A DNA stretch of 64,000 nucleotides. Source: Streblomastix strix. Its lineage: Eukaryota. The stretch is taken from the NCBI GenBank assembly GCA_008636045.1, contig SNRW01000001.1:1-64000 (forward strand). Direction: 5' to 3'. The first letter of the stretch is position 1. Every line of letters starts with the position of its first letter. Below, in pieces: positions 3,001 to 63,793 of the stretch. A model generated the notes under the pieces. It was not told the origin of the DNA. It ran no database searches and was given only the letters and a program-made list of their open reading frames with translations. Both the position numbers and the translations under genes were made by a program.

Positions 3001-5673
3001 GTTGGGATCCTAATCTCGCAAGAAGAGCAAGAAGCTCTAGTGAATATGCACTTATTTCGCTGTCATCGCCACTCGATAGTGGAGTGAGAGTATATTTCAC
3101 AAAGTCTCCTGCAATGATTTCTGTGTGGTTTACTGTTATTAAATAAAAAAAATAGGAATAAATAAAGAAATATTAATTAAAATATATAAATATAATATAA
3201 TATAAGCAAACCATCACAAGAGGCAAGTGAGATAAGTGCAAGAAGTATGTTAATAATTTGATTGGAGTTGATTGTTGAACTTTTCAATAATTTTAATAGC
3301 CATTCTTTTAGTCTTTGTATTATACCTCCCTCACCTTTTAAATTTTAAGGTAATGGTTCTTTTTAGAATAAATGAGCAAGGATGAGTGAAGACCTTCTAT
3401 GTATATCTTCATTAACATTTCCTTTCAATCCAATTAATATGAGTGTATTTAATGAATATCCTCTTTCAAGATTTTATCTGAGCCAGGAACTCGTTTCGTA
3501 TCCATATGCAAGTGTGAATGATTTTGCAATGATGTACATACAATCCAAAGCTCTATCCTTGACATCTTTCTCTTAGCTATGCATTTATAAGGAAAATACA
3601 CGCATATATCTCTCTCCAAACTTCTTAATTGTGACATGACTTGGAAGAGATGAAAGGAGATCATAGAGAAGTTTTGACCAAGATATTTCAATAAGATCAA
3701 TTGGTATTTCCTCAAGAAGAGTAAGAATGTCTTTTGGAATATCAGATGATGCTATAATCTCCGCTGCATGTGACTAAAGCTCTGGTTTGTTATTCGGGAT
3801 TATCTGCTTAAGGATTTTTGATCCAAAAGTAAAGAGAAGAACTGCAACCTATACGGATCTCTCATCTTCTGTGGGTCTTTGAGATACTTCAAGTCCACTC
3901 TCCTATGATTGGAAAATAATTCTCTGAATGTTCTTATGGATTCCAAGCGAGATTTCATCAACAATTGTCTGTATTTCTCTTTTGAATATATTCACTCTCT
4001 CAGAAGTTATATTGAGGGGCTTATATTTGCTAAGAATTTAAATCATTTGAAGCTCCAGATTTTCAATCCTTTGCAAATCTGAAGATGAGTTACTATTAAA
4101 TGTAATGGGTTTTGTTATCTCCTTCAATGCAACTCCAAATTCAGCTGCTCCTCCACTGCTAGCCTATGAAATTTCAAACTCTGCACTCGCCAATTAAGAT
4201 AATAATGTAATCTGCCCTTCCTATCTAACAGGTTCTTCTCTAATTCTCTACTCCTAGAAGAATGGAGCAAAGAAAGATGATGATGAGGAAGAACGTGTTT
4301 CTGATTCCTATTCAATTGTTGTATATAACTTTCTGTCTGTGACGCTTGGTTTGAATGATGCAGATCTTCGAGTAGTCATTCCACGCAGTGACTCTCCAAG
4401 ATTCGTACGGTGTGATGTACGCTGTGAATAAATAGGACCTTCTAATGATGAATATCTTTATGTTTATATTGGCATTGTCAGAGAAAGAAGAGGAACATTG
4501 CTGTGAGTGGATATTTGTGCTATCGATTGTTATTACAATTAATTAATTCTTTCCTAAGCTTCTGGTTTCCGAAGGATATCCCGAGTTGTAAGTCTTTGAG
4601 ATGGGTTCTATATAAATTATTTATTACAATAAATATATAAATGTTTCATAGTTGAAATATTATTCATTCATACTTTTTCAAGCATGCCCAATATAAGTTA
4701 TTGCAACTCTGGAGATTACAACTTCTAAAATGGCTTTGGAAGTCTGCTCATGATATTCATTGTAAGATTAAGACTGGTCTTTCCACTGAAAGGCTGTTGC
4801 TGCTCAGCAAGTTCATAAAGCAATGAACCAAGTGCCCAAATATCTGATTGCTCAGTTGGCCTGCAAAAATAAGTCAAGGTTTAATAATTTTAATAAAAAT
4901 ATTTAAATTTGCACCTTTCTCCTTTAACTGATTCGGGACTTGGGCAAATTCTAAATAAAAAAATTCATTATCAACTTTTTAAATATGTCATATTTCAAAC
5001 TTTTACTTGACTGCATCTTTTGAATAATCTTTGTTTTGTAGAATTAATCTTTCAATCCAGAAATCGGCTAACAATAAATAAGAAAAAGGAATATTATGTA
5101 AAATAAAAGATTAGAAAGAATAAGTACCAAGTTTGACTGTTCCAGATTCAGTTAAAAATACATTAGAAAATTTCAGATTCTTATGAAATATCTTTTTAGA
5201 GTGCAAATAGTGCAGAGATAAAGCAATTCCTGTAGCTATATCCCAGAGTTACTATAAAAAAAGAAGTGAGAAAGTCTGCAAGTTGGTGATTACAATCATA
5301 CTTTTTCTGTTATTGGCTCGTTCTGTTCCTTCGACTACTGAAGTAGTCCTTCCAGACTTCCTCCGTCAATAAATTCAAAAATGATGTAAAATCGTCCGTC
5401 ACTTTCAAATGATCCAAGACAGCTAACAATTCGATCTTGTTTTAGTTTCTTACTAATAGATAATTCTTCTTTTGCAACACGGAGCTATTGATCGGTTGTG
5501 AAGCATAATTCTTTGATTGCAACCCTTTGACGATTGATTTTATCACGAGCTGAGTAAGTTCGTCCTAGTGCGCCGTTCCCAAGCAGCTATATATCATCAA
5601 CTATTGAATATTTTTTATATTTAAATAGACAATAAAAATGATGAGGCAAACATTCACTTATTAGACTTTACAT
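1..5673 (-). CDS. NEK-like protein (pseudo)kinase with long C-terminal ARM/HEAT-like helical region; spliced, 3' end runs off the window
   Basis: With TAR=Gln: ATG at 5673, GT-AG intron 5601-5651, then LLGNGALGRTY (Gly loop), VAIKE, IIFEFIDGGSL, YLHSKKIFHKNLKFSNVFL, VKLADFW, SPE, SDIWALGSLLYEL, NPSQRLT. The frame continues as an alpha-helical region to position 1 with a further intron near 3.14-3.21 kb. Confidence 0.85.
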
Positions 5674-12727: not shown

Positions 12728-14255
12728 TCAACAAGTATTTATATCTGAAGCAGCAGTTCTTATATGCCTATCAATATGAAATTCTAGTGCTGATATAACA
12801 TCTTAATTACATCCGCTCTCCTCCATTTATTCAAATATTCTAGATCTTGTATCTGATTCATAGTTACAATATTACGATTATTCAAAAAGTGATAATTCTC
12901 GTGCAATACTTAGACAATTTCCACAAATCTCGAATTTATTACCTTGACTTTCTAATAAAATGTCATTCACAAAACTCAAAACACCAACTTCTAATAAAAT
13001 ATTAATTTAGTTGTTCAAATATGAACTGTGATTATTGGAGATATTTCCTAATCCTGAGCAGACTGATCGAATAATCCATGCAGCACTTTCAGTAAAAGAT
13101 TCCCATACAATATTCTCATAATCTAAAATAATCTATTATTCTTCAATTTTAAGATCTGTTGAATGGATGAAATATTAATCCAAGATATTATTTGGTTAAA
13201 ATAGTTTTAGAAGGAGTGATTAATTATTAAATACAGCAATCTTTCCTTCCTCAGATGAAAATACAAGCTGTTAAATGATTGTAGCACATGATATAATCAT
13301 CTTATATGAATGAATATCTTTTTAATTCTTCAAATGATCTAGTAATGAATTCAGCACTTTATCAATATTCCAAAAATAAATTAATTCTTTTCGTGCTTCT
13401 GGCTGCTCACACAATGATCTTAAAACAGTCAATGTAAAGATTTTATCCCCAATTAATAAGGTATGTTCTTGGTCAACTCTGCAAATTATTTCCCAAACAA
13501 AATAAAAAAAATGAATAATAAAATTAATAATTATAAAAATAATTCAATACATCAGTAAGGGGATAATATATTTTAGATATTATTCCGAGTTTATATTAGA
13601 GGCTTTAGTTGGATCATCTAACGTCAATTGAAGTAATTAAAGTCCATTATGAATATTTTCATTGTTTTACAATAGAATAGAGATTTAGTTTTAAAGATTA
13701 GTAAGTTCTTCATCTTCAAGTACTTCACCTCGTCCGATTAATAATGCGCATTTCTATAACATGAAATTTCATTCGCTTTATTCTAATTCTTTAAAAGCTA
13801 ATTAACATATTTTTTCTTTCACACCACTCTCAATAAGTGCATAAAGTATAACATTTCCTTCGCGTATACTCTTTTCTTTAGGAATTTATAGGGAGAGATA
13901 TTCAATAATATTCAGTGAAGTAACATCAGCCCCATCTCTTCGATCTTATATTATCTGTCCCAAAAATATGAAGAAGTAGATGTCCAAAATGACCAGTTGA
14001 ACAGAATCGATATCTTCACTTTTAATAAAAATAAATATCTCTTCTAATGAGGTTTTAATATTCGTGCTGGTCTGAGTCTTAAGCTCATTAATAATAACTT
14101 TCGTTAAAATAAATCAAAATTATCAATCTTAATAAGAAAATTAACAAACTGCGTATATGATCAAATTTAATTGTTTTCTTTGTTTAACAGAGCATCCTTA
14201 AAAAAAATGAAAGTTTCAATAAATATTCACTAATTTTATACATAAGTCTATTCAT
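12728..14255 (-). CDS. Hypothetical ARM/HEAT-like helical protein, spliced
   Basis: Open under TAR=Gln with AT-rich GT-AG introns (~13.49-13.55, ~14.1 and ~14.2 kb); ends IFEQMEESGCNQDVISALEFHIDRHIRTAASDINTC-TGA; Leu/Ile-rich helical repeats. Confidence 0.6.
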
Positions 14256-14928
14256 TTTTCGATATAGGAGTGTTTATATTTTATTTGATTGGTTTTATGT
14301 TGAAATAACAGTTAGTTCGAGTTATATAAACGTTTTTATATGAAAATATTTCTAATGCGATTAATACTTAGACAGCTGGTATAAAAGTAATTTTAGATGT
14401 TAATATTATGTAAAATATCATGCAAAAATAAATATAAGTATTAAAACAGAATTGAGAGGGATTGGTACAAGCATATATCGAAAAAAAATTATTTTGCAAA
14501 TTTCCAAGTCTATCAAAGCAATAAAATGACAGATACATGAATAAAATGGCAAATACATGAATAAATATATAAAATTTGTATTTTGATAATTCAAAAAATC
14601 TCACAAGTTTGTTATTGTGTATTTGAAATAAAATATTGATAACAGGCTAACATCGGTATTTAAGCAATTCATCAGCATTGATTCTACTATTTTGCTTTTG
14701 CTTATATTAGTTAATTTTAATAATATATATTAAACATTAATTGCAAATCCAATTGTGAGAAAATGAGTGTGCAAATAAAAACATTTGCAGAACTCGTATT
14801 GATTATTAATTCAATGCAAAACCAATCTAATTAAACATAAATATTTCCAGATTGAAAAATGAATATACGTATTAATTTTAATTAACAGAATATTTATTGG
14901 AATTTTCATTTTTATTAACAGATTATTG

Positions 14929-38847: not shown

Positions 38848-38849
38848 AA

Positions 38850-39010
38850 AACATCAACAAAAAGCATTATTTTGGAACATGAAATTGACGTGGGTAGTGA
38901 ATAACTTTTGACTACACCAAGTGCATCGAGCGCATCGAGTCAGAAACTTTCATCGAAAACTGTGGCCAACTGGCCAACTGGCCAATAATTGAGAAAAATA
39001 ATTATAATTT
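38850..39010 (+). repeat. Left arm of imperfect inverted repeat (pairs with ~39860-40030)
   Basis: actacaccaagtgcatcgagcgcatcgagtcagaaactttcatcgaaaactg (38911-38962) is the near reverse complement of cagttcttgatgaaagtttttgactagatgcactcgatgcactcggtgcagt (39919-39970); weaker similarity extends on both sides. Confidence 0.85.
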
Positions 39011-39032
39011 CAAACGTGAATGCTTATATTTT

Positions 39033-39812
39033 TCATTGGTTCTATAATTATATTCTTCGACTCTGTATATCAATTGGTAATTTTTATCTTAAATATTATT
39101 CGTTTCTTAATATATCAAAATCTTATCTAAATTAACCATTTTTATCTGTACCATAACTATAATCAAGAAATGAACTAGCAACATCTAACCTTTTACCTAT
39201 TATTTAGCCGACAGGACCGAAAGCTGCAAGTATTGGTTTAGCAAATGGTTTTATTAACGATTTATAAACGTTATCATTAGCCCATTATAGACCTTTCCTT
39301 AATTTTTAAACAAATTACAGTCATTATCGGTTAATTCAAATATCGGTTAATTCACAGTAGATTTAATTCGCAGTATTTGAACTAAATGACTTATATTTTA
39401 AAAGTTTTTGCTTAAGTTTTATCACTTAATTCGCAGTAACAAAGTATGTAATTCACAGTAAATTTTAATCAAATCCTTATAAATTCTAATTAATTAAAAT
39501 TTAAAAAAAATTTATGATAAATTTACATACAAATTGCATAAATTGAATATTTTATTTCTTTCAATAAGACTAAAACCAATAAAAATATGTCAAAGAAATT
39601 CTAAAAATTTATTTTTTAAAAAAAAATTTAATTATTTTTATTTATATAATTATTTTATTATTGAATTTCTCTAATTTATATAAAAATTTTAGTAGTTTTA
39701 TGTATAAAATCAGCGAATTATCTATAATTCACAGTTCCATTTTTTGATAAATCGTTTTTTGAATTAACCGATAATGACTGTATTTGATTTTATTAAAGAT
39801 GCCAATCGCTAT
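39033..39812 (-). pseudogene. Small amphipathic Gly/Ala-rich virion protein (lytic-peptide-like), copy A, interrupted by a MITE
   Basis: Removing 39318-39780 plus one TA restores the frame: IAIGIFNKIKQFVQKLRKGLQWANDNVYKSLIKPFAKPILAAFGPVGQIIGKRLDVASSFLD...QFRQDF...YLRQKLPIDIQSRRIQL; aligns with 63464-63793; start codon is ATA. Confidence 0.75.
39318..39780. mobile_element. 463-bp non-autonomous MITE of the Tc1/mariner-pogo type
   Basis: Perfect 23-bp TIR CAGTCATTATCGGTTAATTCAAA; TA on both flanks (39316-17, 39781-82); repeated internal TAATTC(A/G)CAG motifs; excision restores the interrupted ORF. Confidence 0.92.
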
Positions 39813-39859
39813 AAGTTTATTAATAATAAAAATAAAATTTTATATGTATTATTTTAGAT

Positions 39860-40030
39860 TTGAATATATGATTTTATTTTTAATATTTCTCACTTCTGGC
39901 AGAATGACAGGCTGATAGCAGTTCTTGATGAAAGTTTTTGACTAGATGCACTCGATGCACTCGGTGCAGTAAATAGTCATCCATTAACGAAGCCATTTAT
40001 GCGTACCATTTTCAATAAATTTATTGATGT
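39860..40030 (-). repeat. Right arm of imperfect inverted repeat (pairs with ~38850-39010)
   Basis: See left arm; contains the 9-bp array gatgcactc-gatgcactc-ggtgcagt. Confidence 0.85.
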
Positions 40031-40138
40031 GTTATGACTCGGTGCTTCAGCCGCAGGCGGAGTCTTCGACATAATCAAAGTATTTATGTTTAATTAAGTA
40101 TTTAATTAATTATTTTGTTTATTAATTGAATGTAAAAG

Positions 40139-41840
40139 ATGAATAGATTCTTAATGAAAGCCACACATTTACAACAAGCGGGGACCATTGAAGAAACATT
40201 GTCAGATAATGCTATTGTTCTAATCACTAATGACGGAGAACATCATTATTCTATCAAAGAAATTAAACCAGTCCAGCGTTATTTGATAAGGAAATTATTA
40301 TAAGTTTATCAGACGCAGACCAAAATATCACATGGATATAAAATTTGTTCTTGTCGGTAGTGCTAACTGCTAATATCCAACTTGATGATAAATTTGATAA
40401 AATTGACGTATCATATAAAGACGGATTGGTTCTATTTGTAGGTTTCAAATCAAGTTCAAATCTTATTAGAGAATACACAATCTATCATAGAAGTAAAACC
40501 ATTGATGGAAGTCTATAGTATGACGCAACAACTGAATCATTCATTTATAACACTATCAAGCCAAAAAGTGAGAAAAATAATAGAAAACATATATATTTTT
40601 TGCATGAGAATAATCAATAATTTGATATTTCAGCGTGTGAAACATATATAAGTATGCGAAAAATTGGAGAGCTAACAGGAAATCAAACAGCGGTTCCACA
40701 TACAATTCCAATACGTTTCAAAGTCAATGTTCCACTTGATGACTTCTTGATATTCTCTACATTTACTGATTATCTTAATAGCGTATTTCGTTATTTAAAA
40801 ATAAAATTCAATATAAATCCTCATGCATTCGTTTTCAGTCAAATGTATTCAATTATTTCAATCGCTAAATATTATATTATGAATAATGATGAGTTATTGG
40901 ATAATAGTTAGTAGAAGTTAAAGGATATTGGTTTGATGTTCAGAAATTGGAGTCCGATATTCTAATTTACTAAATAATTTACGTAATTGGGATCCACTGC
41001 TGATTTAATAGCAGGACTACATACGGAACCACTAACTGAATCAGGATTGAAGAACTTAGTACGCGACGTAAGACCCGTTACTACGCACATAAAAAATTGT
41101 GTCATTATCAAGGTAACGGCTAATATGGCAAGTTATAAAGCTACTGATGCATGTCTCAATCGAGTCCGATAATTCTACAGTTAACGTCCATTTGTCGTAC
41201 CTGCGGAAAAAGTAGAAAATGGCCATCTCCAACATCTTCTACACTAACGGGAATACGAACATCTTAAAATATTCTTCTGTTTCATGTGACGGATTTCTGT
41301 CTTCTATTTCCATAGGATGTTAGAGCTACAACTTGCTTTGAAAATCCTTGCTATCAGAACATGTAAGTAACCACCTGTAGTAATAACTTTCCAGATATGC
41401 CTATGAATACTCTTGACCAATAATTCTTCTAATTACAAATAAAGGCGAGCAATTTAGACCTTTCAATCGAAGCCACTGAAGAATTTGAAGATGCTTTAAC
41501 TACGCCAAGAAATACAGCTACTCGAAGACTTAATCCTCATACTGAATTAATAAACTTTTTGATAACTCTTTAATATGAAAGAAACAGCAATGGAGCATTA
41601 ACTTTCGATGGACTAGACACTCAGAACTAAAACACATCTATCGATCTCAGAGGAGTACCAATATATCAAGGAGCAACAAATTCATACTACAATGTTGATA
41701 CCAGGGGAAAGAGACCATCATCTCCGATTTTATGAACAGTTCATGATACATTTTGGTTGTTTTCAATCTCTGCAGGTGAAAGCTGCATATATGATACTAA
41801 CCATTCATTTGATGAAATTATAAAACCGTTAAGTTCTTGA
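40139..41840 (+). pseudogene. Major capsid protein (putative double jelly-roll), copy A
   Basis: ~565 codons with frameshifts (~40.27 and ~41.22 kb) and an in-frame TGA near 41.73 kb; FVGFKSSSNLIREYTIYH, VPLDDFLIFSTF, LKIKFNINP, FPDMPMNT, LTFDGLDT; collinear with 61688-63410. Capsid assignment rests on size, beta-rich pattern, context and recalled resemblance to protist Maverick capsids. Confidence 0.7.
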
Positions 41841-41981
41841 AAAGTTAATTCATTTATTTTTATACATTTTTATTTTTTTAATATATACATAATAAACACC
41901 TAAACATTAATATTGTTAATTAAATCAGTCATTAGTTATACATATATATATAAATATTATTTTTTATTCATTTTATAATAA

Positions 41982-42377
41982 ATGGCTTCAAATATGACTT
42001 CAGTTTAAAATATAACGTTTTACATTTGAACATAAAATGACGGAGTTGTTATTGCTTAGAACGATTAGAATGGAGTTAGTTTTGCATTACTATACGCGTT
42101 TGTAAATTCAGATAATTAAAGAAAAATTGTATTCTGCTAATGCCATTGCTTAAACTAAGGCATTAGCGAGGACATTTCTGTTCATAGTTCAGTGGTTCAA
42201 GAAGAGTAGTATTTCGATAAGTTTGTTGGCTATTGTAATGAATAACGTGTTTATAAGCCATATTTCTAATACAACCACAACAGATATTTATACATATGGT
42301 TCCGTTAAAACTAAGAATTATTGGATATTAATTAATAATAATTAAAATTTGTTCTTGGTTTGAAGCTGGAATACTGA
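41982..42377 (+). pseudogene. Small minor capsid (penton-like) protein, copy A
   Basis: ~131 codons with one in-frame TGA (42027); FVNSDNQRKIVF, SVHSSVVQEEQYFDKFVGYCNE, IWFR, KFVLGLKLEY*; homologous to 61266-61658. Confidence 0.55.
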
Positions 42378-42668
42378 TAAAAATTATTTTTTTTAAGGGC
42401 TTAATTTAGTCCCATGATTGATACGAATATTTTTGTTCAAATCGTCAGGCCTCGCTACCTCCAAAAAAATGGATGTAGGTTATTACTAGTACATTTTTGT
42501 TTAAATAGGGGGTCAGCTCAATTTGAGCCAACTAAAATTAAGATAAAAATACTCGTGATTTTGAGTCGGCTTCCAAAAAAAAGGCGGACCAATTAATGCT
42601 CAAACAAATATTATTTCAAAATTAATCGTTTTAATTTATATAAATTCAACTTTTTATCAGTATATAAA

Positions 42669-43510
42669 ATAAAAGCAGAAATAGCAACAACATAATAAAT
42701 TACTTCAAACAATGAAACTTTCATTAGTGGTTCTTATCTAATGTTCGAAATAATAATTCGTAATAAGGATGGATATGTAAATTCTACAAAAGTAGTTTAA
42801 TAAATCAATGAAAAAGAGAATTTTAATAAGAAACTTAAAATATAATATGATAATCAATGTGTAAAGAGCATAAAGAGTTTTAATGAATTAATGTGCATGC
42901 TAGAAAACCAGCCAGCCCATTCTTGAGAATCAATTAGTTAATAAATATTTAAATAATGTTAGAGGAACATATATTTATAAAGATTTAATAAACATAATAT
43001 GTATGAAAACATCAATAAAATCTTTATATCTTACCAATTAGATAATCAATGTATATAATTCGAATTCTAAGCTCAAGAAGATTAGACATCCATGGCTTAT
43101 TTTACAGAAGAAAACGTTTAATTAGTTATAGAAGAATTAAAAGTAGTAATAAATTAAAAAGATAATGATTTAAAACAATTGAAACCAAGAGCTGTTCAAT
43201 AAGCCAAAGAAACTGCATATGTTCTAGCCGTTTAACATATAGAGGTCGATGATTAAAATAATATAATATTAAAAGTTCGAATAAGTGATATGAAATGGAT
43301 TTGCCGTAAATTGATGCAAGATTTAAAAGATGCATTGTCGTACTATGATTAAGAATATATTGCATTGACCAAAAATGAAGCTATCAAAAAAATATTTAAA
43401 TAAAAATATGGAAAGAATTTAATTTAAAGGAATCATATATATATTCAATGAAGATTTAACAGATTATGTCATAAATAAAATTTAAGAATATATAAATACA
43501 TAATTTGTAC
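42669..43510 (+). pseudogene. KilA-N domain protein, copy A
   Basis: IIIRNKDGYVNSTKVV and VRGTYIYKDLINII (KilA-N signature segments); disrupted downstream; homologous to 60300-61191. Confidence 0.75.
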
Positions 43511-43553
43511 TAAAATTATGAACAATAATTTAATTTATTTTTGCTGAAATTAA

Positions 43554-43910
43554 ATGGAAAGAATATTATTTGACAAAAAAAATCAATATATTTTCATCGA
43601 AATTATAAATAGAAACGGATGAATAAGAAGAAATACCTCTCGAGGAGGGGTCCAAGGATCGACTAACGGAGCCAAATATTTTGAGACCTTAAATGATTTC
43701 AAATAATTTATTTCCTAAAATTAATAATAATTATTTAAACTAACAACGTAAAAATTAAATAAATTATATAATTTAGAAGGCTATAAACTATCAAAAATAG
43801 AAGGTCAAATATGCATAAGAACTTGTGCTAAATACTAATTAAGTAAGATTGAGTATAAATTAGACTAGTTTTTGGATGTTCTGAGTCATTTAGTCGATGT
43901 GCTGAAATGA
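43554..43910 (+). pseudogene. Small conserved viral hypothetical protein (ORF-X), copy A
   Basis: MERILFD...KLNKLYNLEGYKLSKIEGQICIR aligns with MYRVLFD...RLNKLYKVEGYIFTRQNEQIALK at 59871-60275. Confidence 0.55.
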
Positions 43911-43914
43911 ATGA

Positions 43915-44990
43915 CTTTTTTCGATGCTTTCATATATAGTATCTTTCTCTGTTTCCCTTTTGCTTTCTTTATCATGAACGCTGTGTTATATACTTTAATC
44001 TATTCTTTTCAAATTGATATCTCAAAATTCTCCATCAATTCCTCTTCTAATATTATCTAATATTCCTTCGCTTCATCTTCTGTACCTGTGAATATCGTTA
44101 TCTTAGTTGTTGGTCTAATCTGCTGATGTTTTATTAATTTTTCAGTTAGAGGAGGAATCCATATTTGACAAAATCTTTCATTTTAATTATTTTCCATTGT
44201 CATGAACACCAAGCTGCTTGAACCCCATTCTTGTTTGGTGTTTATTCATTACCATTGTCGGTTTCACCATTCTCAAGATATCCTCCCTATATTCTTTCTT
44301 CCTGCTCTTTATAACAAGTCCAACTGTTCCTGCTAATCTGTCTCTGAGTCAATCACTATTACAATCTGATAATTGGGTGCGTGTATCGGTTTTTTGTTTG
44401 TTTGATTTTGAATTGATCTTGTTGCCTTTTAGGAGTTTGGGGGACATATCTTCAGTAACTGGGGCTACATCTGCCTTTTTTCTCCGATTCTACTGAGGTG
44501 TGAAGTGGTTAAGAGTGTCGGAGTTGGCTCTAGCTTCGGGACTCCCTAAGGACTTATTGGGTACGGACTTTAGTTAATCTGTTTTGCTTCTAGTATCATG
44601 GTCATTGGTTGGTTGCATCCTTTGTTTGGGTACTACAACTTTCCCTTTAACTTAACCTAATTCTGAAGGTGTGGTGATTAGAGAAGGTTGGCCTTTGGGT
44701 TGTGAAGTGTTTGGATTTCTTAATTCTTATTTGGAATGAGTTGTATGAGATAATCCTATTTCTCCTGTATTATTATTTACACTATCTTGTTGATGTTGGA
44801 TTTCGTTGTTGGATCATTATTTGTTTTTGTTTCTTTCAATTTATGTATCATTTACTTGCTAGTTATTTTTTAAATCTCTAGTGCTATTGATTAATTGGTG
44901 GTTTAAGTTTCCATTTTCGTTTGTTGCTGCCTGTAACTGAGTCCGGCAACCGTTTTCTACAAGTTCATCAGTGGTGAGAGAAAAAGAAGC
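43915..44990 (-). mobile_element. Truncated, degenerate DIRS-like/Ty3-related retrotransposon fragment (low-complexity upstream region plus start of reverse transcriptase)
   Basis: WKIIKMKDFVKYGFLLQ, then FTGTEDEAKEYQIILEEELMENFEISI*KEQIKVYNTAFMIKKAKGKQRKILYMKASKK, which matches the RT N-terminal pattern (..F.IKK..GKWR.ILD...LN). It breaks off before the catalytic motifs; GC content is higher than the flanks. Confidence 0.65.
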
Positions 44991-45000
44991 CGGCCCTTAC

Positions 45001-45833
45001 ATGACAAATGCATCTCAGTTATTCGGTCCTGAAAACCATATGGTATTAATATCGATATGAGTAGTAAATGAAAAAGGATGATGCCCTCACATTGATAAAC
45101 GCAGTGATTTGCCCACATCAGAAATACCCAGTGATATTACGAATTGCTGACATATGAAAAACGAATAGATTATCCAGAACCGAAAATCGAGGAATAAATT
45201 TGATGTTAATAAAGAAATACGGATAAAATAATAAACAATAACATTTATGAATATCATTAGTAATGAAAAATAATTGATATGATTTATGATATACATTTAC
45301 GATAAAAAATAATTGATATGTTTTATGATATGCGTTAATAAAAATTAATAATTGATTTGATTTCCGAACCTCACAAACGAATAGGATTTAAGCAATATTT
45401 CGGGCACCATCCTTTTTCATTAACTACTTATAGCCCAAATCAATGATTTGACCGATGCGTACTAACTTATATTGATTATTTGACTATGTTCGATTAAGTT
45501 TTCATTGATGAAATTGGGATAATGGTACCGAGTAACTGGTCGACGGATGAAATACATTATTTGATGAAATTGATGGTGATGAACAGTTTCAGAATTGATT
45601 AAAATGGTTGTTTTTGGAATGTACGAGTAGGATATGACCTTAGGATAGCCTGTGAGAGTTATATGAAAAATTAGGTTTTTAATCAGAATTTTGACCTATT
45701 ATAAATTTATTTTACTATTATTAAATAGACTGAAAAATCATGGAAAAATTTAAGTTTTTTGAATGACCTGAGAATCAATGTAATAGTTAATGTTGATACG
45801 CTGATCACAAATATAATGTTTAAAATGAGTTGA
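45001..45833 (+). pseudogene. Degenerate hypothetical ORF containing a ~39-bp tandem duplication
   Basis: Coding-like frame with several TGA stops and a frameshift; duplicated aaaaataattgatatg.tttatgatat at ~45266-45345. Confidence 0.3.
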
Positions 45834-45999
45834 TGGACTATTGATTCGGTCCAATTAAGCGGAACAATGAAAAAGATTAATGGAGTGGCTAAATGATATG
45901 AAATGTCCGTGCAAATAAAGTATTGCAGCCCAAATGAATGATGGGACAAAATGATCTGTCCTCATTAGTATGTGCATGCTAGCGGAGTGGGCAAATTGA

Positions 46000-46350
46000 A
46001 TAATTATCCATGTGGGACAGTTTTGGGATGGGACAAATCCGTGGACTCCTGTGAAAAAATGCTGCCATAATGCCATTCATGCCATAAATTTGAATCATGG
46101 ATAAATAATGTGAATTGACCATGTCAGCTTCGCTGGCTTTTGCAAAAGCAAAGTGCACCGAGTCAACCGAGTGCACCGAATCATAAGTTGACAGGTTGGA
46201 TTCCCGCCATATATTAGACATAATGCCATAAATTTGAATCATGAAGGAATGATATGAATTGTCCGTGTGTCCTGAGTGTCCTGAATGTCCTGAGTGTCCT
46301 GAGTCACAAGCTGAACAGCTCGGATTCCCGCCATTAACCATAATGTCATT
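46000..46350 (+). repeat. Three tandem diverged copies of a bipartite repeat (9-bp array plus GCCAT triplet) upstream of the primase-helicase gene
   Basis: gtgcaccga-gtcaaccga-gtgcaccga (46152) and gtgtcctga x4 (46267), each followed by ggattcccgccat..cataatg(c/t)cat; tgccataaatttgaatcatg occurs at ~46080 and ~46224. Confidence 0.85.
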
Positions 46351-46405
46351 AATTAAATAAAAATTATTTTTCTTAAACTATTTGAACTTTTTATCCATAA
46401 GCAAA

Positions 46406-49146
46406 ATGACATCAGAAGAATCCACAAGCGTCGAAACAATCTCAAATCAATCCATAAACGTTAAACATATTACATTAGAGAAACGTTCAAAAAGATAATA
46501 TAATCGTAAATCGAAAACGGATAATAAAGCTAAAGAATTAATGGACAAATTACTAGAGGAATAAGAATTAGTGAGAATCAAACGTGAATGAGATGAATTT
46601 GATGCGTAAAAGAAAGAGGTTGAAGAATAATAATCTACGAGACATTTAATTGAAGACATTGATCAGAAATAGCAAAAGGAATAGTAAAAATAAGAATAAT
46701 AGATAGAAATGGATTAGCTTTTAAAAAACCTCATACCAATTGCCGCATAAATGAAGGAAGAAACAGTTAGTAAAACTATCATGGAACGAGTTAAGAATGC
46801 AATGATTAACACAGTAAATTATACTAAAATAGGTTAAAAAGAAGGTGAGAAAAAATAAGTAACAGGTAAGTTAATTGATTTAACTCTAGTTGAAGATGGT
46901 GATTTATGCGTGATTGATTTCGATATTAATAAGAAACTATCAATTGAAGAAACTGATAAAATAAGATAAAACATAATAGATAATATGCTTCCTGCTAATG
47001 TAAGTCTTGTTAAGACTGCACATGGAGGATTGCATGCTTATTGTAATAGAGATGGACACACCTTACCTTCGAATAGATGTATGAAATGTATTGTATTAGA
47101 TAATATTGAGATTGATATATTTGGATAGATGTTTAAGTATAAGGAACATGGCAGAATGGAATAAAAGGAACTTGTATAGAATCGAGTAGTTGGTCCAAAC
47201 TCATCATTCCAAGAAACAAAAAATAATAAAAGAGAGACACTTAAATATGAAGCTATTAATGATTGGGCTAATATGACACATTTAGCGAGTCTGAAAGAGA
47301 TCTTAGATAGCTGGAATGTCGATATTGAAATACCGTTCAAAGAATACATAGAAAAGGTAAACATGAGAGAATTTGGTTGGCAAATCACAGAAAAAGGAAC
47401 TATTGATAAGATGAATGATGAAATTGCATAAGCATGTGTTAATGGATTGAGGAATCTTGAAATGCATAACTATCCTTAACCAATCAATATGGAAGTATCA
47501 ATATTAAGTGTATTTTCAGGAATTTATGGAATCACTAATGAGAAGATTAGAGCTGAAGGAATGAAAAATATACGATAATTCATTAAGCTAACTCCAAACG
47601 CTGAAAAGAACTATGGTGAAGCATCATTTAGTGGAGAACGTAAGCCGAATCCATGGATTCTTACAAAAATCCTAAGACACCATAATAAAGATTACTACGA
47701 ATAGACAATTAAGCCACTATTGAAACAGAATTATGAAGTGAAAAAATAATAGAAAATATCAGATACAGTGTAATAAATTGAGAAGCATGAAATTGACTTG
47801 AAAGATCAATTCACATTAATAGATGTATCTAGCAAAGCATTAAATGGAAAATATGAAAATAAATTAGAGTTAGTTGCATAAGATTTATTGAGAATAATTA
47901 AAGTTATTCCTTGCTAAAATGGATGGTGCTTTATCATTAAAGAATACGATTGTATCGCTGGAAAAAATACTATAAAATATAAATCTAAGACAGCATTATA
48001 TGATTAGTTACGTTCAATCAGATTTTGGTAAGATGGAAAGAAGCATATCACTGCAATCGATGCACTAGAATAATATCATTCATTATTTGAGAAGATTGGT
48101 ATGAAATTCACTAGTAACAATGAAAGTATATTCAGTGTATTCTAAGGATTCAAATATATGCAATTAGATGAAGTGAATTAGATAAAAATAAATCAATTCC
48201 TAGGATTAGTGAAAGATACAATCTCAGCAAATGATGAACGAGTTTATGAATACATATTAAATTGGTTTGCATTCATTGTATTGAATGTTGGAAAGAAAAC
48301 TGAAACAGCTATTATACTTCAAGGATTATAAGGAATAGGTAAGATGTATTCACTAATGTCTTATGCGAATTACTTGCAGGTTATTCTTCAAAGAATATCA
48401 CAGATATAGATGATTTTGTAGGTAAATTCAATATAGCTATCGAGAATAAGATTTTGACAATTGCGAATGAAATGAAGAATTTTGGAGAATCGAGAATGTC
48501 AAACATGGACGCATTGAAATCAATAATTACTGAAAGTTCCTTTGAAATTAATGAGATGTATGTTTCTAAGCATGAAGTTGAGAATGTAGTGAATATAATG
48601 ATTGTTACAAATAATATCTATCCATTAAAGATTGAAAATAGTGATAGACGCTATGTTGTATGCAAATGTCATCCAGTTCATCGTGGAGATTTGAAGTATT
48701 TCACTAACTTGTGCAATAGCTTCGATGATGATTTTTACAATAATTTATTCACATTCTTTATGACTAGAGATATTTCATAATTTAATCCAAGAAACATTCC
48801 AATGATATAAGCTAAGAAAGATATAATAAAAGCATCAATCTCACCAGTAGACGATGTAATAATTAATTATTTTAAATCATTTAGAGATGGAATTACATGC
48901 AATATTGTTGAAGGATGGAAATCATAAGAAATGAAATTAAAGTATTATTAATTTGCGATCAAAAATATATGTGAAAGAGTTAGAAAAACAAGTGGCTGAG
49001 AACGTAAATGGATGTATTAATTGAAAGAAGAAATGATATCAATCAATGAAAGTATGCTAGATGAAGAAACTGATGAGATTGACTCCGTGCTAATGCAACA
49101 AGAGAAAGAATAAGAGATATAGAATGATGGTAATGAATAGATATGA
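46406..49146 (+). pseudogene. Primase-polymerase (AEP/Prim-Pol) fused to D5-like SF3 helicase
   Basis: LCVIDFDINKK (DxD), VKTAHGGLHAYC, Walker A IILQGLQGIGK (frameshift just after, ~48343), LTIANEMKN, IVTNNIYPLKIENSDRRY; premature TGAs at 46589 and ~48998. Confidence 0.88.
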
Positions 49147-49189
49147 AATTATTTTTGCTTGGAATCGTGGAGAATTAATGTGAATGAAC

Positions 49190-49345
49190 TAGTGTCCTGA
49201 GTCGAAGAATTACTATGATTATTGTGTTCTAGAATCATGGGGAATTGATTCAAAATAAAATAGTGTCCTGAGTGACCTGAGTGTCCTGAGTCCGAACTCG
49301 CCATCTTTTTTTCCTGCCATATCAGACATAATGCCATATTGTTCA
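49190..49345 (+). repeat. Left arm of second inverted repeat (pairs with ~49925-50075); also a direct-orientation relative of the 46.2-46.35 kb unit
   Basis: attgtgttctagaatcatggggaattgattcaaaataaaatagtgtcctgagtgacctgagt is the near reverse complement of actcaggacactcaggacactagtctattttgaatcaattctccatgattctagaacacaat. Confidence 0.9.
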
Positions 49346-49438
49346 TTTCGAATCATAATTTGAAGGGCTAGTGAACGTAAATAAATAGGGTGCTGCCATA
49401 ATGGCATTTGCTCAGATTGCTCAAAAAATAATTAAAAG

Positions 49439-49735
49439 TCATTTCAGATAAAACTTATAATGATTGAATTTATTAAGTCTTGTTTCAGTATTCTATATCT
49501 TAGTTAGTCCTTCGAATATGAGTTCATCATATGTAATTAGGAGATATCCATTTATGTCTAATGTTAATAATTTATTTATCAGTTAATCCTTCTCGAAACT
49601 TCTTCTCATTTCTCTCAATGAATTTATCTAAAATTATCTAGCATATTCATTGTAATTATTTTTATCATCGTAATCGAATGGATTATTGTATCTAGATGTA
49701 ATTTTGAATTTATGAGGATCATTAGTCTTTGCCAT
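49439..49735 (-). CDS. Small hypothetical protein (98 aa) between inverted repeats
   Basis: Uninterrupted ATG..TGA frame under TAR=Gln (MAKTNDPHKFKITSRYNNPFDY...HYKFYLK), preceded by a T-rich upstream motif. Confidence 0.55.
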
Positions 49736-49924
49736 TTGTTTTGGAATAAAAAATATAATATGATGAATTAAAATGAGTTAAATGAAAGTTCTGGATAAAT
49801 TGATTGAAATAAACTAGTGTCCTAAGTCGAGGCTTTTGAAATTGGATATGGCGCTATAATAATATATTGCAATTGTATCAAGCTAGTGATGTGGAATATT
49901 AATATCAAATGTCCAAATCAGAAA

Positions 49925-50075
49925 TCTAATGGCAGAATGGTAGATATGGCAGGTATTTAGGCATGAACTTTGTAACTCAGGACACTCAGGACACTAGTCT
50001 ATTTTGAATCAATTCTCCATGATTCTAGAACACAATTTTATCTGACATAATTTGACTCAGTACACTCAGTACACT
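49925..50075 (-). repeat. Right arm of second inverted repeat
   Basis: ctcaggaca x2 and ctcagtaca x2 arrays; atggcag..atggtag..atggcagg is the reverse complement of the GCCAT triplet. Confidence 0.9.
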
Positions 50076-50237
50076 CTGATAAATAACACCATTTGCACAC
50101 ATCATCTCATTAATCATACCATTAACGCACATCATTAGCACAAAAATAAATCCGACCGACGGACCGACCAACTATTATTTTTGTCAATTTTATGGTTTCT
50201 ATCCTGCACACTTGCATACTTGAACAAATCACTTCAT

Positions 50238-50678
50238 TCATCCACATCGTTAACCCACACCATTAGCGCAAAAAATAAATCGTATTTATTAATTATATTG
50301 ATCAATTATATCGCTAATTTAAAGTAAATCCTGTACGTTAGTTATGATAGTTTTCTAAAGATGTCGAATCAAAAAGAGTTATAAATCGTTGGCAGATGCT
50401 CGAAATTCCTATCGCTGAATTCTATATTTCTATTATACACGGGATCGTTACTCTGCGGCAATGCGTTCGGCTTCTTCTTGTGAGCTATGTTTTTTAGGTC
50501 TACCTCTTTATTCTATTTTCTCCTCGTTTAATTATGTCTATTGAATAGGATTTAGTGCTTGATCAATTAAAGGAGCATGAAGGACTTCATCAATTGGACT
50601 GGATTATGCTTCAACTAATTATGGAACTGATTTCTTCGATTGTTTTTTACGGATTTGTTTTGTTTCACTTGCTTGCAT
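50238..50678 (-). CDS. Small AT-hook DNA-binding protein
   Basis: MQASETKQIRKKQ...QRGRPKKHSSQEEAERIAAEQR; the RGRP AT-hook is in frame. 3' end uncertain. Confidence 0.55.
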
Positions 50679-50697: not shown

Positions 50698-52029
50698 TCA
50701 ATTTCTTATATTAAATTAACTTTTATAATTTGCTGGTAACGAATTGATATCATCACTAATGAATTTACAGTAATATAATGGTAACTCAATAACATTAATT
50801 TTATCATATGAATTCAATAGTTTACACTCAACATTACCGTTCTTATAAGTAATGAATGTAGCCAATTCATTGAATTAACGTCTTTATTTCTAAAATATTA
50901 TAGGTAATCTGGAGAAATCAGCGTGGATCATTAATATATTTCCACTTTTGAAATTTAATAAATTCTCCTGTTATTGTTTTTGCATCACCTATTCCAATTA
51001 TGCTTATTTTTATCGTATGAATTTATCTTCTAATTTTCTATTATACTACACTTATTTTGGAGTAAATCTGTTCATAAATGCAAGATGTGGTGTTTTATTG
51101 TAAATCTCTACCATTTATTACATCTAACTTGGTGTTGCAAATCTTATTAAATCTTATCCAAACCCATTTCTAATTGTACGAATGACGCTATCATCTACTC
51201 TATTATGCTATGTGAACGGTGAACCTGTAAAATATAGTGAAATCTTATTATCTTCACAAAATTATCTAATTATATTAGCTGTAAATCCAGTTTCACTATC
51301 ACCTCTAAAATTGTTAACATATACTTAATTAATGAGCTTCTTTAATGCTGCTAAAATATACGTAGCATTCTTCTCATCTATAATTAATGGAATCACAATT
51401 AAATATTTTGTATTAATGTTGATCGCAAATAAATAATGCTATCTCCTTCGAGTAACTGGATTGACACCAAATACTAGATCAATCTCCCAAGATCCTAGTT
51501 TTGGAGAAAAATATGGGCGTTAGAGTTTGTTTAAAGGCTTTGCTTTAATGTCTTTGATTTATGTTTATTATATTATCTTCACTTTATTAATTTTTTCATA
51601 TTATTTGATCTTAGATTTGAAAGGAAATAATGAAAGAGGGTTTTGAGGCTATTTGATTCACTAGATTTATTCAGTAACATATGATCTATTAGAGTCTTAG
51701 CTTCTGATAGATCTAGCTCTTCTTAATGGAGCATTATACTTTTATGCTTCTGTTTAATATATTTCGAACCAATCAAGTAGAGTCTTTCCACCAATCTGTA
51801 TTTCATCTGCATGATTAATTAAAACAATTTGTTCTTCCTTACTTGGTGTGATTCGCATATTTGATATAAACTGGTCAAATTTCATTATTCCATTATTTGT
51901 ATTCGCTAATCGTGTGAGTTACTGTTCCATATTATGTGCTTCATATTCTATTTATTCATCTATTTATGCAAATCTTGCCAACAATAATTAGTAAATTTAA
52001 TCTTAATTAGCTTATAGATCTCTGTTCAT
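50698..52029 (-). pseudogene. Retroviral-type (rve/c-integrase) integrase
   Basis: GSWEIDLVF, YLFAININTKYL, FRGDSETGF, HNRVDDSVIRTIRN, YNKTPH; 444 codons with one in-frame TGA at 51658-51660. Confidence 0.88.
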
Positions 52030-63463: not shown

Positions 63464-63793
63464 TCACTGAAATTCATTTCCAAGTAGTTATATCCGTTTA
63501 CTAATTACATCAATTGGAACATTTTTCCTTAAGTAATTGTCTTATTGGAATGTCTTAAAATCCTATCTGAATTGTTATTTTGATTATTATTTATTAGGTC
63601 CAAATAAAGCATCTACGGCTGATGATCCTACACTAATTCCTTTCGCTACCATACTTCCTGCTGGTCCCAAAGATGATAGAAGTGCATTAATTATGGGCAT
63701 TATTGGCTTGACTATTTTATCATTCATCCAATAGACTCCTTTACCAACAACTGAGATTAATTTTTTAAGCTTGCTGAGTATTCCCGGCGCCAT
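63464..63793 (-). CDS. Small amphipathic Gly/Ala-rich virion protein (lytic-peptide-like), copy B
   Basis: Intact 109 aa: MAPGILSKLKKLISVVGKGVYWMNDKIVKPIMPIINALLSSLGPAGSMVAKGISVGSSAVDALFG...QFRQDF...YLRKNVPIDVISKRIQL. Confidence 0.7.

Follow-up and report, generated by a model that had tools for sequence, protein, structure and literature searches.

Among described replication systems, the closest to the one considered here are the Rep proteins of the Staphylococcus aureus pathogenicity islands (SaPI), enzymes of the same layout which, in the part of their description available to us, bind 6–12 iterons placed directly downstream of the gene, in opposing sets around an AT-rich centre (PMC9371898). 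Replicase modules of the Polisuviricotina that combine an archaeo-eukaryotic primase (AEP) with a superfamily 3 (SF3) helicase are bracketed by repeats and have been proposed to be mobile (bioRxiv 10.64898/2026.10.13.758929; PMC11296320), and endogenous viruses using a code in which TAA and TAG encode glutamine have been described in Streblomastix strix (PMC10120064), according to the sections of these sources at hand. In the present work we analysed positions 1 to 64,000 (forward strand) of S. strix contig SNRW01000001.1 (assembly GCA_008636045.1), hereafter the window, in which a dispersed family of bipartite repeat units accompanies a primase-helicase gene. The host is an oxymonad, a protist of the termite gut. 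With a probability of roughly 0.55, we propose that the units are putative iteron origin sites for the winged-helix tail of the enzyme, that their arrays load the helicase, and that they double as exchange points.

Results

A full unit comprises 2–4 direct, non-palindromic copies of a 9-mer, a spacer of 23–24 nt (a sequence-only reading of the window had put it at about 20 nt) and three GCCA-type boxes. All eight positions which that reading had listed for the family exist: six are full units, one (46064–46087) has the boxes only and one (49817..49828, +) is a single 9-mer without boxes. The list is here extended by a 9-mer at 49192 (+), a doublet at 50074 (-), a weak single 9-mer at ~40045 (-), outward of U2, and two further motifs, GAATCRTG, whose five matches in the window all fall inside units, and TGGGACA, present three times. 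The full units, whose clusters are dispersed, are U1 at 38921 (38912..38984, +; 9-mers at 38921 and 38930 plus a degenerate one, a 23-nt spacer and three GCCA boxes with an 8-bp period), U2 at 39960 (39897..39969, -), U4 at 46153 (46153..46228, +; three 9-mers, boxes at 24/35/43), U5 at 46267 (46267..46348, +; four 9-mers, boxes at 25/32/40), U6 at 49263 (49232..49336, +; a GAATCATG box, three 9-mers, boxes at 24/33/41) and U8 at 49994 (49930..50032, -; a GAATCATG box at 50025, two 9-mers, boxes at 24/33/41). The partial U3 (45942..46100, +) contains the three TGGGACA copies (45942–46035), the 46064–46087 triad without 9-mers and a GAATCATG box at 46092; U3 to U5 form a tandem series with steps of 115–144 bp, and length variants of it occur in contigs.

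Measured from where the 9-mer array ends, the first box lies at 24–25 and the last at 40–41 in five of the six full units (the last is at 43 in U4), and the conserved spacing claimed earlier was thus borne out on alignment. As to the three GCCA boxes attributed to every unit, three perfect boxes occur only in U1 and in the 46064 triad, the other units having a degenerate one (GACA, ACCA or GTCA). Mean ungapped identity between units is 0.68 for the 9-mer arrays and 0.43 for the spacer. Contigs from four runs of three studies were compared with 45.9–50.3 kb at 85% likeness; each of the four runs has contigs with a 2-nt deletion in U4 that brings its spacing to 41, as in U6 and U8, and in nine contigs from run X3 the GTCA of U5 is replaced by GCCA. 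Since all 30 bins of this region were covered in all four runs, the units recur in sequence space together with the helicase and with the small gene that U6 and U8 enclose.

The composite pattern had three matches in the window and none in 100 shuffles. Each unit was recovered by a profile made from the other five (E 1e-6 to 1e-10), the best matches of the same profiles having E>=2.5 on host DNA or on element B, the viral element adjoining the units on the right, and E>=3.7 on the reversed window. A loose 9-mer pattern matched 15 times in 38–50.3 kb, five times, always isolated, in the first 38 kb and never in element B, with a shuffled mean of 5.9 for the window. The confinement to viral DNA on which the earlier reading had staked its interpretation thus holds within the 64-kb window, which is its scope here: neither the 38 kb of host genes nor element B contains a unit. 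Folding of 10 segments gave none better than shuffles (units z -1.0 to +1.9), hence no hairpin or RNA structure signal, and no peptide is conserved between units, though one frame is open in most of them. No DNA of close relatives was found in viral, metagenome or prokaryote collections. Pattern scans returned 57 loci, taken as chance; none encodes a relative of the enzyme, and the only one with a tandem array is a coding repeat.

The gene between U5 and U6 (46406..49146, +, TAA/TAG=Gln) encodes a primase-polymerase, an SF3 helicase (DUF5906, NrS-1-like) and a predicted winged-helix domain, and its copy in the window is broken by in-frame TGA codons and a frameshift. As first described, U5, which ends 57 nt before its start, and U6 are direct repeats around it, and U1/U2 and U6/U8 are inverted pairs. 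The gene product is identical to a protein that NCBI lists under the name S. strix. The family comprises at least 132 protein clusters, and the 120 listed all bear the name of this species, with 36–100% identity to the window gene. A profile built from 23 copies gave a match to the helicase of NrS-1 (E 5e-27), and Bodo saltans virus primase-helicases were the leading matches in a viral library. The structure model used is that of the intact relative P0003 (mean predicted local distance difference test score, pLDDT, of 57, with good ends and a tail at ~81–88). Its residues 23–209 match the pRN1 prim-pol (Z 8.9, root-mean-square deviation 3.6, 146 aligned) and residues 700–794 match many winged helices at Z 6–7, values that alone can reflect a common arrangement, while the helicase tier is unreliable in the model (pLDDT <50) and that domain was assigned by sequence. 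With the full model, Foldseek gave no PDB match at E<=0.001, pRN1 and NrS-1 being top-ranked. Among the 120 listed, one gene model (P0035) fuses a DDE domain to the enzyme. Another helicase model, P0116, is divergent and lies outside the window, on a contig as long as that of the window. The family extends past this host, with full-length standard-code relatives on short metagenome contigs (P0242–P0264).

Downstream of the gene is an array of nine 9-mers, of which five are forward and four reverse; it begins 45 nt past the helicase stop, where a GAATCGTG box and the single 9-mer at 49192 occupy 49162..49203 (+); this array region is the top repeat tile of the 63 in the window. An inverted repeat of 80% identity (49174–49282 / 50084–49975) joins the U6 and U8 sides, and its outer end is U9 (50054..50074, -), two 9-mers without boxes. 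The U6–U8 interior, 590 nt with a gene inside, has 27% GC, like the window average, and the U1–U2 interior has 20%. Distant relatives of the enzyme (22–35% identity) were found on 12 distinct contigs, of which L059, L072 and L073 were left out for having a cut gene or fewer than 200 nt beyond the stop. By a strict rule (at least four copies of a GC-rich word, with both orientations represented, no farther than 500 nt from the stop), arrays are present in four of the nine remaining relatives (L058, L060, L061 and L070); L066 passed a shuffle test (0 of 200) and failed the strict rule. Among 46 other genes in six relative loci, used as control, none satisfied the strict rule and two a loose one. 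The repeat word differs between relative lineages, and L070 has two alternating motifs, like this locus: at 4320–4720, after the helicase stop, ATGGAGGT and GAGGAAC alternate in mirror arrangement. Its contig is filed in a bacterial metagenome-assembled genome (MAG), with virus-like genes.

Because of their conserved spacing, their confinement within the window, the domain layout of the enzyme and the same layout in distant relatives, the units are supported as phased, non-coding candidate binding sites tied to the primase-helicase module. Of the roles earlier suggested for such sites, an origin fits best, recombination gains one flipped gene and ambiguous contig joints, and a promoter is the weakest. 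The KilA-N or AT-hook-like proteins then put forward as binders are unlikely, because both are encoded in element B, where there are no units.

The flipped gene is gene Y, a remnant (39033..39812, -) on the strand opposite to its neighbours, between U1 and U2, and a homologue of the element B gene at 63793–63464 (local score 178; none of 300 shuffles scored above 53). In element B, gene X, gene Y and a capsid-like gene lie on one strand, with no unit there; in element A (38.2–43.8 kb), an inverted and decayed paralogue of the right part of element B (68% over 1.6 kb), gene Y keeps its native position, with gene X on one side and the capsid-like gene on the other, and faces the opposite way. 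The left arm of the inverted repeat, the U1 homology (~38848–39012), starts right past the stop of the upstream gene X, where this gene is 7 codons shorter than in element B; U2 is the right arm and points into the start of gene Y. With gene Y flipped between U1 and U2 and the homology starting at the shortened end of gene X, the units appear to mark the breakpoints of an inversion of gene Y relative to element B. Inserted in gene Y and unrelated to the units is a TA-flanked inverted-repeat element of 467 bp (39316..39782); it has TAATTCRCAGTA repeats in its interior and terminal inverted repeats of ~20 bp, and we take it to be a Tc1/pogo-type miniature inverted-repeat transposable element.

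Partners resemble each other more within a pair (U1/U2 0.69; U6 side/U8 side 80% over 110 nt) than U1 or U2 resembles the remaining units (0.48–0.53). U2, U5 and U8 face gene starts 57–195 nt away, U8 pointing to that of the small gene (49439..49735, -), and U1 and U6 face gene ends. The small gene, frameshifted here, encodes 98 amino acids in intact copies, and the tags of its two other models adjoin helicase tags at both other known loci, on contigs of equal length. One profile relates the small protein to the helicase tail at 13 bits (at most 10.1 in 1000 shuffles), and the region gave a best phmmer match of E 2e-4 among 490 proteins; on these comparisons we lean towards homology with the tail, and the gene is possibly a free copy of the helicase C-terminal domain. 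The structure model of the small protein was poor (pLDDT 55.5) and was not used, and the small proteins of L071–L073 gave no match to the tail profile. On two gut-MAG contigs, L071 (1–702) and L073 (1–1580), a small reverse-strand gene lies between inverted repeats beside a DUF5906-type helicase; in L071 an integrase-like gene follows downstream, and this contig further carries a 17-bp tandem that includes TTGGCAT.

Among the joints listed, contigs of run X1 show some from U4 to U6 that skip the helicase (summed depth 583, depth being no measure of copy number here), from U6 to U5 (488) and from the U6 flank to the helicase start (44), together with tandem steps within U3–U5; a joint from U5 to the U8 flank on the other strand (47) is seen in X1 and also in X4, of the same sample. 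These joints fit exchange between units, ambiguously, and the two other studies gave none of the joints listed for X1. No aligned contig spans the whole primase-helicase module. Helicase and capsid-like models share two of 32 contigs of at least 10 kb, against 1.2–2.1 by a rough null, in a count using 120 of the 273 capsid-like matches, and cluster members add a third shared contig. The tags are 5 apart in all three, which suggests a fixed place in some viruses; in one of them the helicase lies between two capsid-like genes, as in the window. The module looks partly independent and partly at a regular position.

The window holds host-type genes up to ~37 kb, and its code reads TAA/TAG as Gln: translation table 6 gives long open reading frames and table 11 gives 13 short ones. 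Element B, from 50.2 kb onward, has HNH, polymerase B and KilA-N genes and a weak match to the rve integrase (E 6e-4, under the Pfam cut-off), and is a protein-primed polymerase-B/integrase Maverick. Its rve-type integrase frame (50701–51570, -) is apparently intact. The 523-aa protein of element B, which has no Pfam name, is called capsid-like from its context and 273 relatives, and other proteins are presumably an AT-hook protein and an ATPase. At 50090–50330, a candidate left end of element B, there are CCATTA-type repeats and a 60-bp duplication, with a depth jump at 50192 in all four runs. Element A is set apart by a decayed fragment (43880–44960, -) that we assume to resemble the start of a DIRS-type reverse transcriptase. 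A second short element lies at 45056–45432, bounded by 31-bp inverted repeats (90%) around a 39-bp tandem, and a pair of 147-bp inverted repeats (75%) within the host part of the window (14198–14918) is probably another non-autonomous element.

Discussion

We envisage that the 9-mers would act as iterons bound by the winged-helix tail of the helicase, as in SaPI, so that the primase-helicase would load at the units and begin DNA synthesis there. Opposing arrays could load two hexamers facing the AT-rich interior (20–27% GC), and the GCCA triad, at its fixed distance, might bind a second protein or position priming. The product of the small gene between U6 and U8 may be a spare tail domain in competition for the sites. 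Through strand exchange or template switching from one unit to another, the enclosed genes could be flipped, deleted or tandemly repeated, and the replicase module could in this way move between virus copies.

Several observations weigh against this proposal. A single origin would not need the units that stand upstream in tandem and around gene Y, 7 kb off, nor does the GCCA triad have a counterpart in the SaPI description as far as available (PMC9371898). The interior between the opposing arrays measures 0.6–0.9 kb and contains a gene, against the compact SaPI origin. Four of the nine relatives (L062, L063, L071 and L074) have no array after the stop, the positive ones amount to three lineages instead of five (pairs are 74% and 59% identical), and the closest full-length relative, L072, is cut before the stop and has its 9-bp repeats within a reading frame that lies upstream. 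A single paralogue underlies the inversion, and the likeness of the small protein to the tail is weak, with a second profile within decoys and an hhalign probability of 23%. Almost all the joints come from X1, possibly the source data, with sides of only 20–54 nt, and paralogous copies at 85% or amplification chimeras would give identical ones.

Of the other explanations, the one that survives best, though we consider it unlikely, takes the units for the ends of a cut-and-paste or composite mobile element, carrying subterminal transposase sites; 45.9–50.1 kb would be the element and the inverted pairs non-autonomous derivatives with passenger genes. The two inverted pairs indeed bound their inserts, 69–82% identical and closer to each other than U1/U2 are to the other units, the start of the U1 homology coincides exactly with the end of gene X, itself 7 codons early, the sharing of contigs between helicase and capsid-like genes is at chance level, and a small gene between inverted repeats stands beside the helicase in L071 and L073 as well. 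However, neither a transposase nor a recombinase was found in the module (the weak rve match belongs to element B), the four outer ends, of old copies, show no sharp common terminus or target duplication, gene Y stands at its native place, and the constant 5-tag distance suggests a fixed position in some viruses.

Promoters or enhancers of a virus lineage, comparable to the baculovirus homologous regions, are somewhat less likely still: the bipartite fixed spacing would be suitable, and gene Y, the helicase gene and the small gene each have a unit (U2, U5 and U8, respectively) that points into their start, but U1 and U6 point into gene ends, the homologous genes of element B and the capsid-like gene of element A have no unit, and the arrays of the relatives sit after a stop codon. 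Least probable is that duplication has spread a functionless minisatellite or what is left of a repetitive reading frame (ECP/SGH/PSAS-type peptides), since the spacer letters diverge with the distances kept, and box periods of 8 and 1–2-nt indels break the frames of unconserved peptides, despite the tandem series U3–U5 with its length variants, a period of 9 that is a multiple of 3, the frame open in most units and the sole viral match of a 21-nt word, a coding ECP repeat.

Returning to origin sites that double as exchange points, a bolder extension, tentative at present, would make the locus a capsid-less and integrase-less eukaryotic 'replicase transposon', in which the primase-helicase and a small competitor gene would copy themselves from bipartite iteron units, having spread to well over 100 nuclear sites of the oxymonad, while spare units flip or reshuffle the genes of nearby endogenous viruses. 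In the accessible parts of the proposals, no cis-acting site is named for the replication start of polinton-like viruses without polymerase B or for replicase swapping. This locus offers candidates for such a site (9-mer array, fixed spacer and triad), for the domain that reads it and for a regulator, as well as one site-bounded rearrangement, in a genome with enough copies for co-evolution and mobility to be studied computationally. If the proposal is true, the units help explain how replication modules move between integrated viruses.

Our literature search, mostly of open papers without their supplements, gave no description of these repeats. The word 'metamonad' is absent from the main text of bioRxiv 10.64898/2026.10.13.758929, and S. 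strix elements may be shown in its figures or in the datasets of PMC10120064. The modules of Polisuviricotina share with this locus an AEP-SF3 enzyme apart from the capsid module and beside a second replicase type, tandem insertions and the lack of an own integrase, whereas their accounts, in the portions available, include neither repeat anatomy nor an iteron model or an inversion (bioRxiv 10.64898/2026.10.13.758929; PMC11296320). The same three-domain enzyme with an origin just downstream of its gene is described for ORF904 of pRN1 and for phage BIP-1; by the excerpt consulted, however, that origin is a 100-nt stem-loop without iterons (PMC4234260), and the units here fold no better than shuffled sequence. 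Baculovirus homologous regions are likewise dispersed clusters, seen as origins or enhancers and flanked by inversions and deletions, but, as far as the source was available, they are 30-bp imperfect palindromes in a large circular genome, unlike the directional, non-palindromic units of S. strix (PMC4599791). The closest likeness remains that to SaPI, in which Rep and PriRep5 have a primase, an SF3 helicase closest to NrS-1 and a C-terminal winged helix, and repeats lie directly downstream of the gene in two opposing sets. Within the available part of that account, SaPI iterons have 5–6 nt and a short AT-rich centre at one locus, whereas here 9-mers are combined with a phased GCCA triad, a gene is enclosed by units, further units stand upstream and at a distance of 7 kb, and the host is a eukaryote (PMC9371898). 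What is new beyond the known modules is that the unit is bipartite and dispersed, that one gene is flipped and that the copy number is high in a nucleus.

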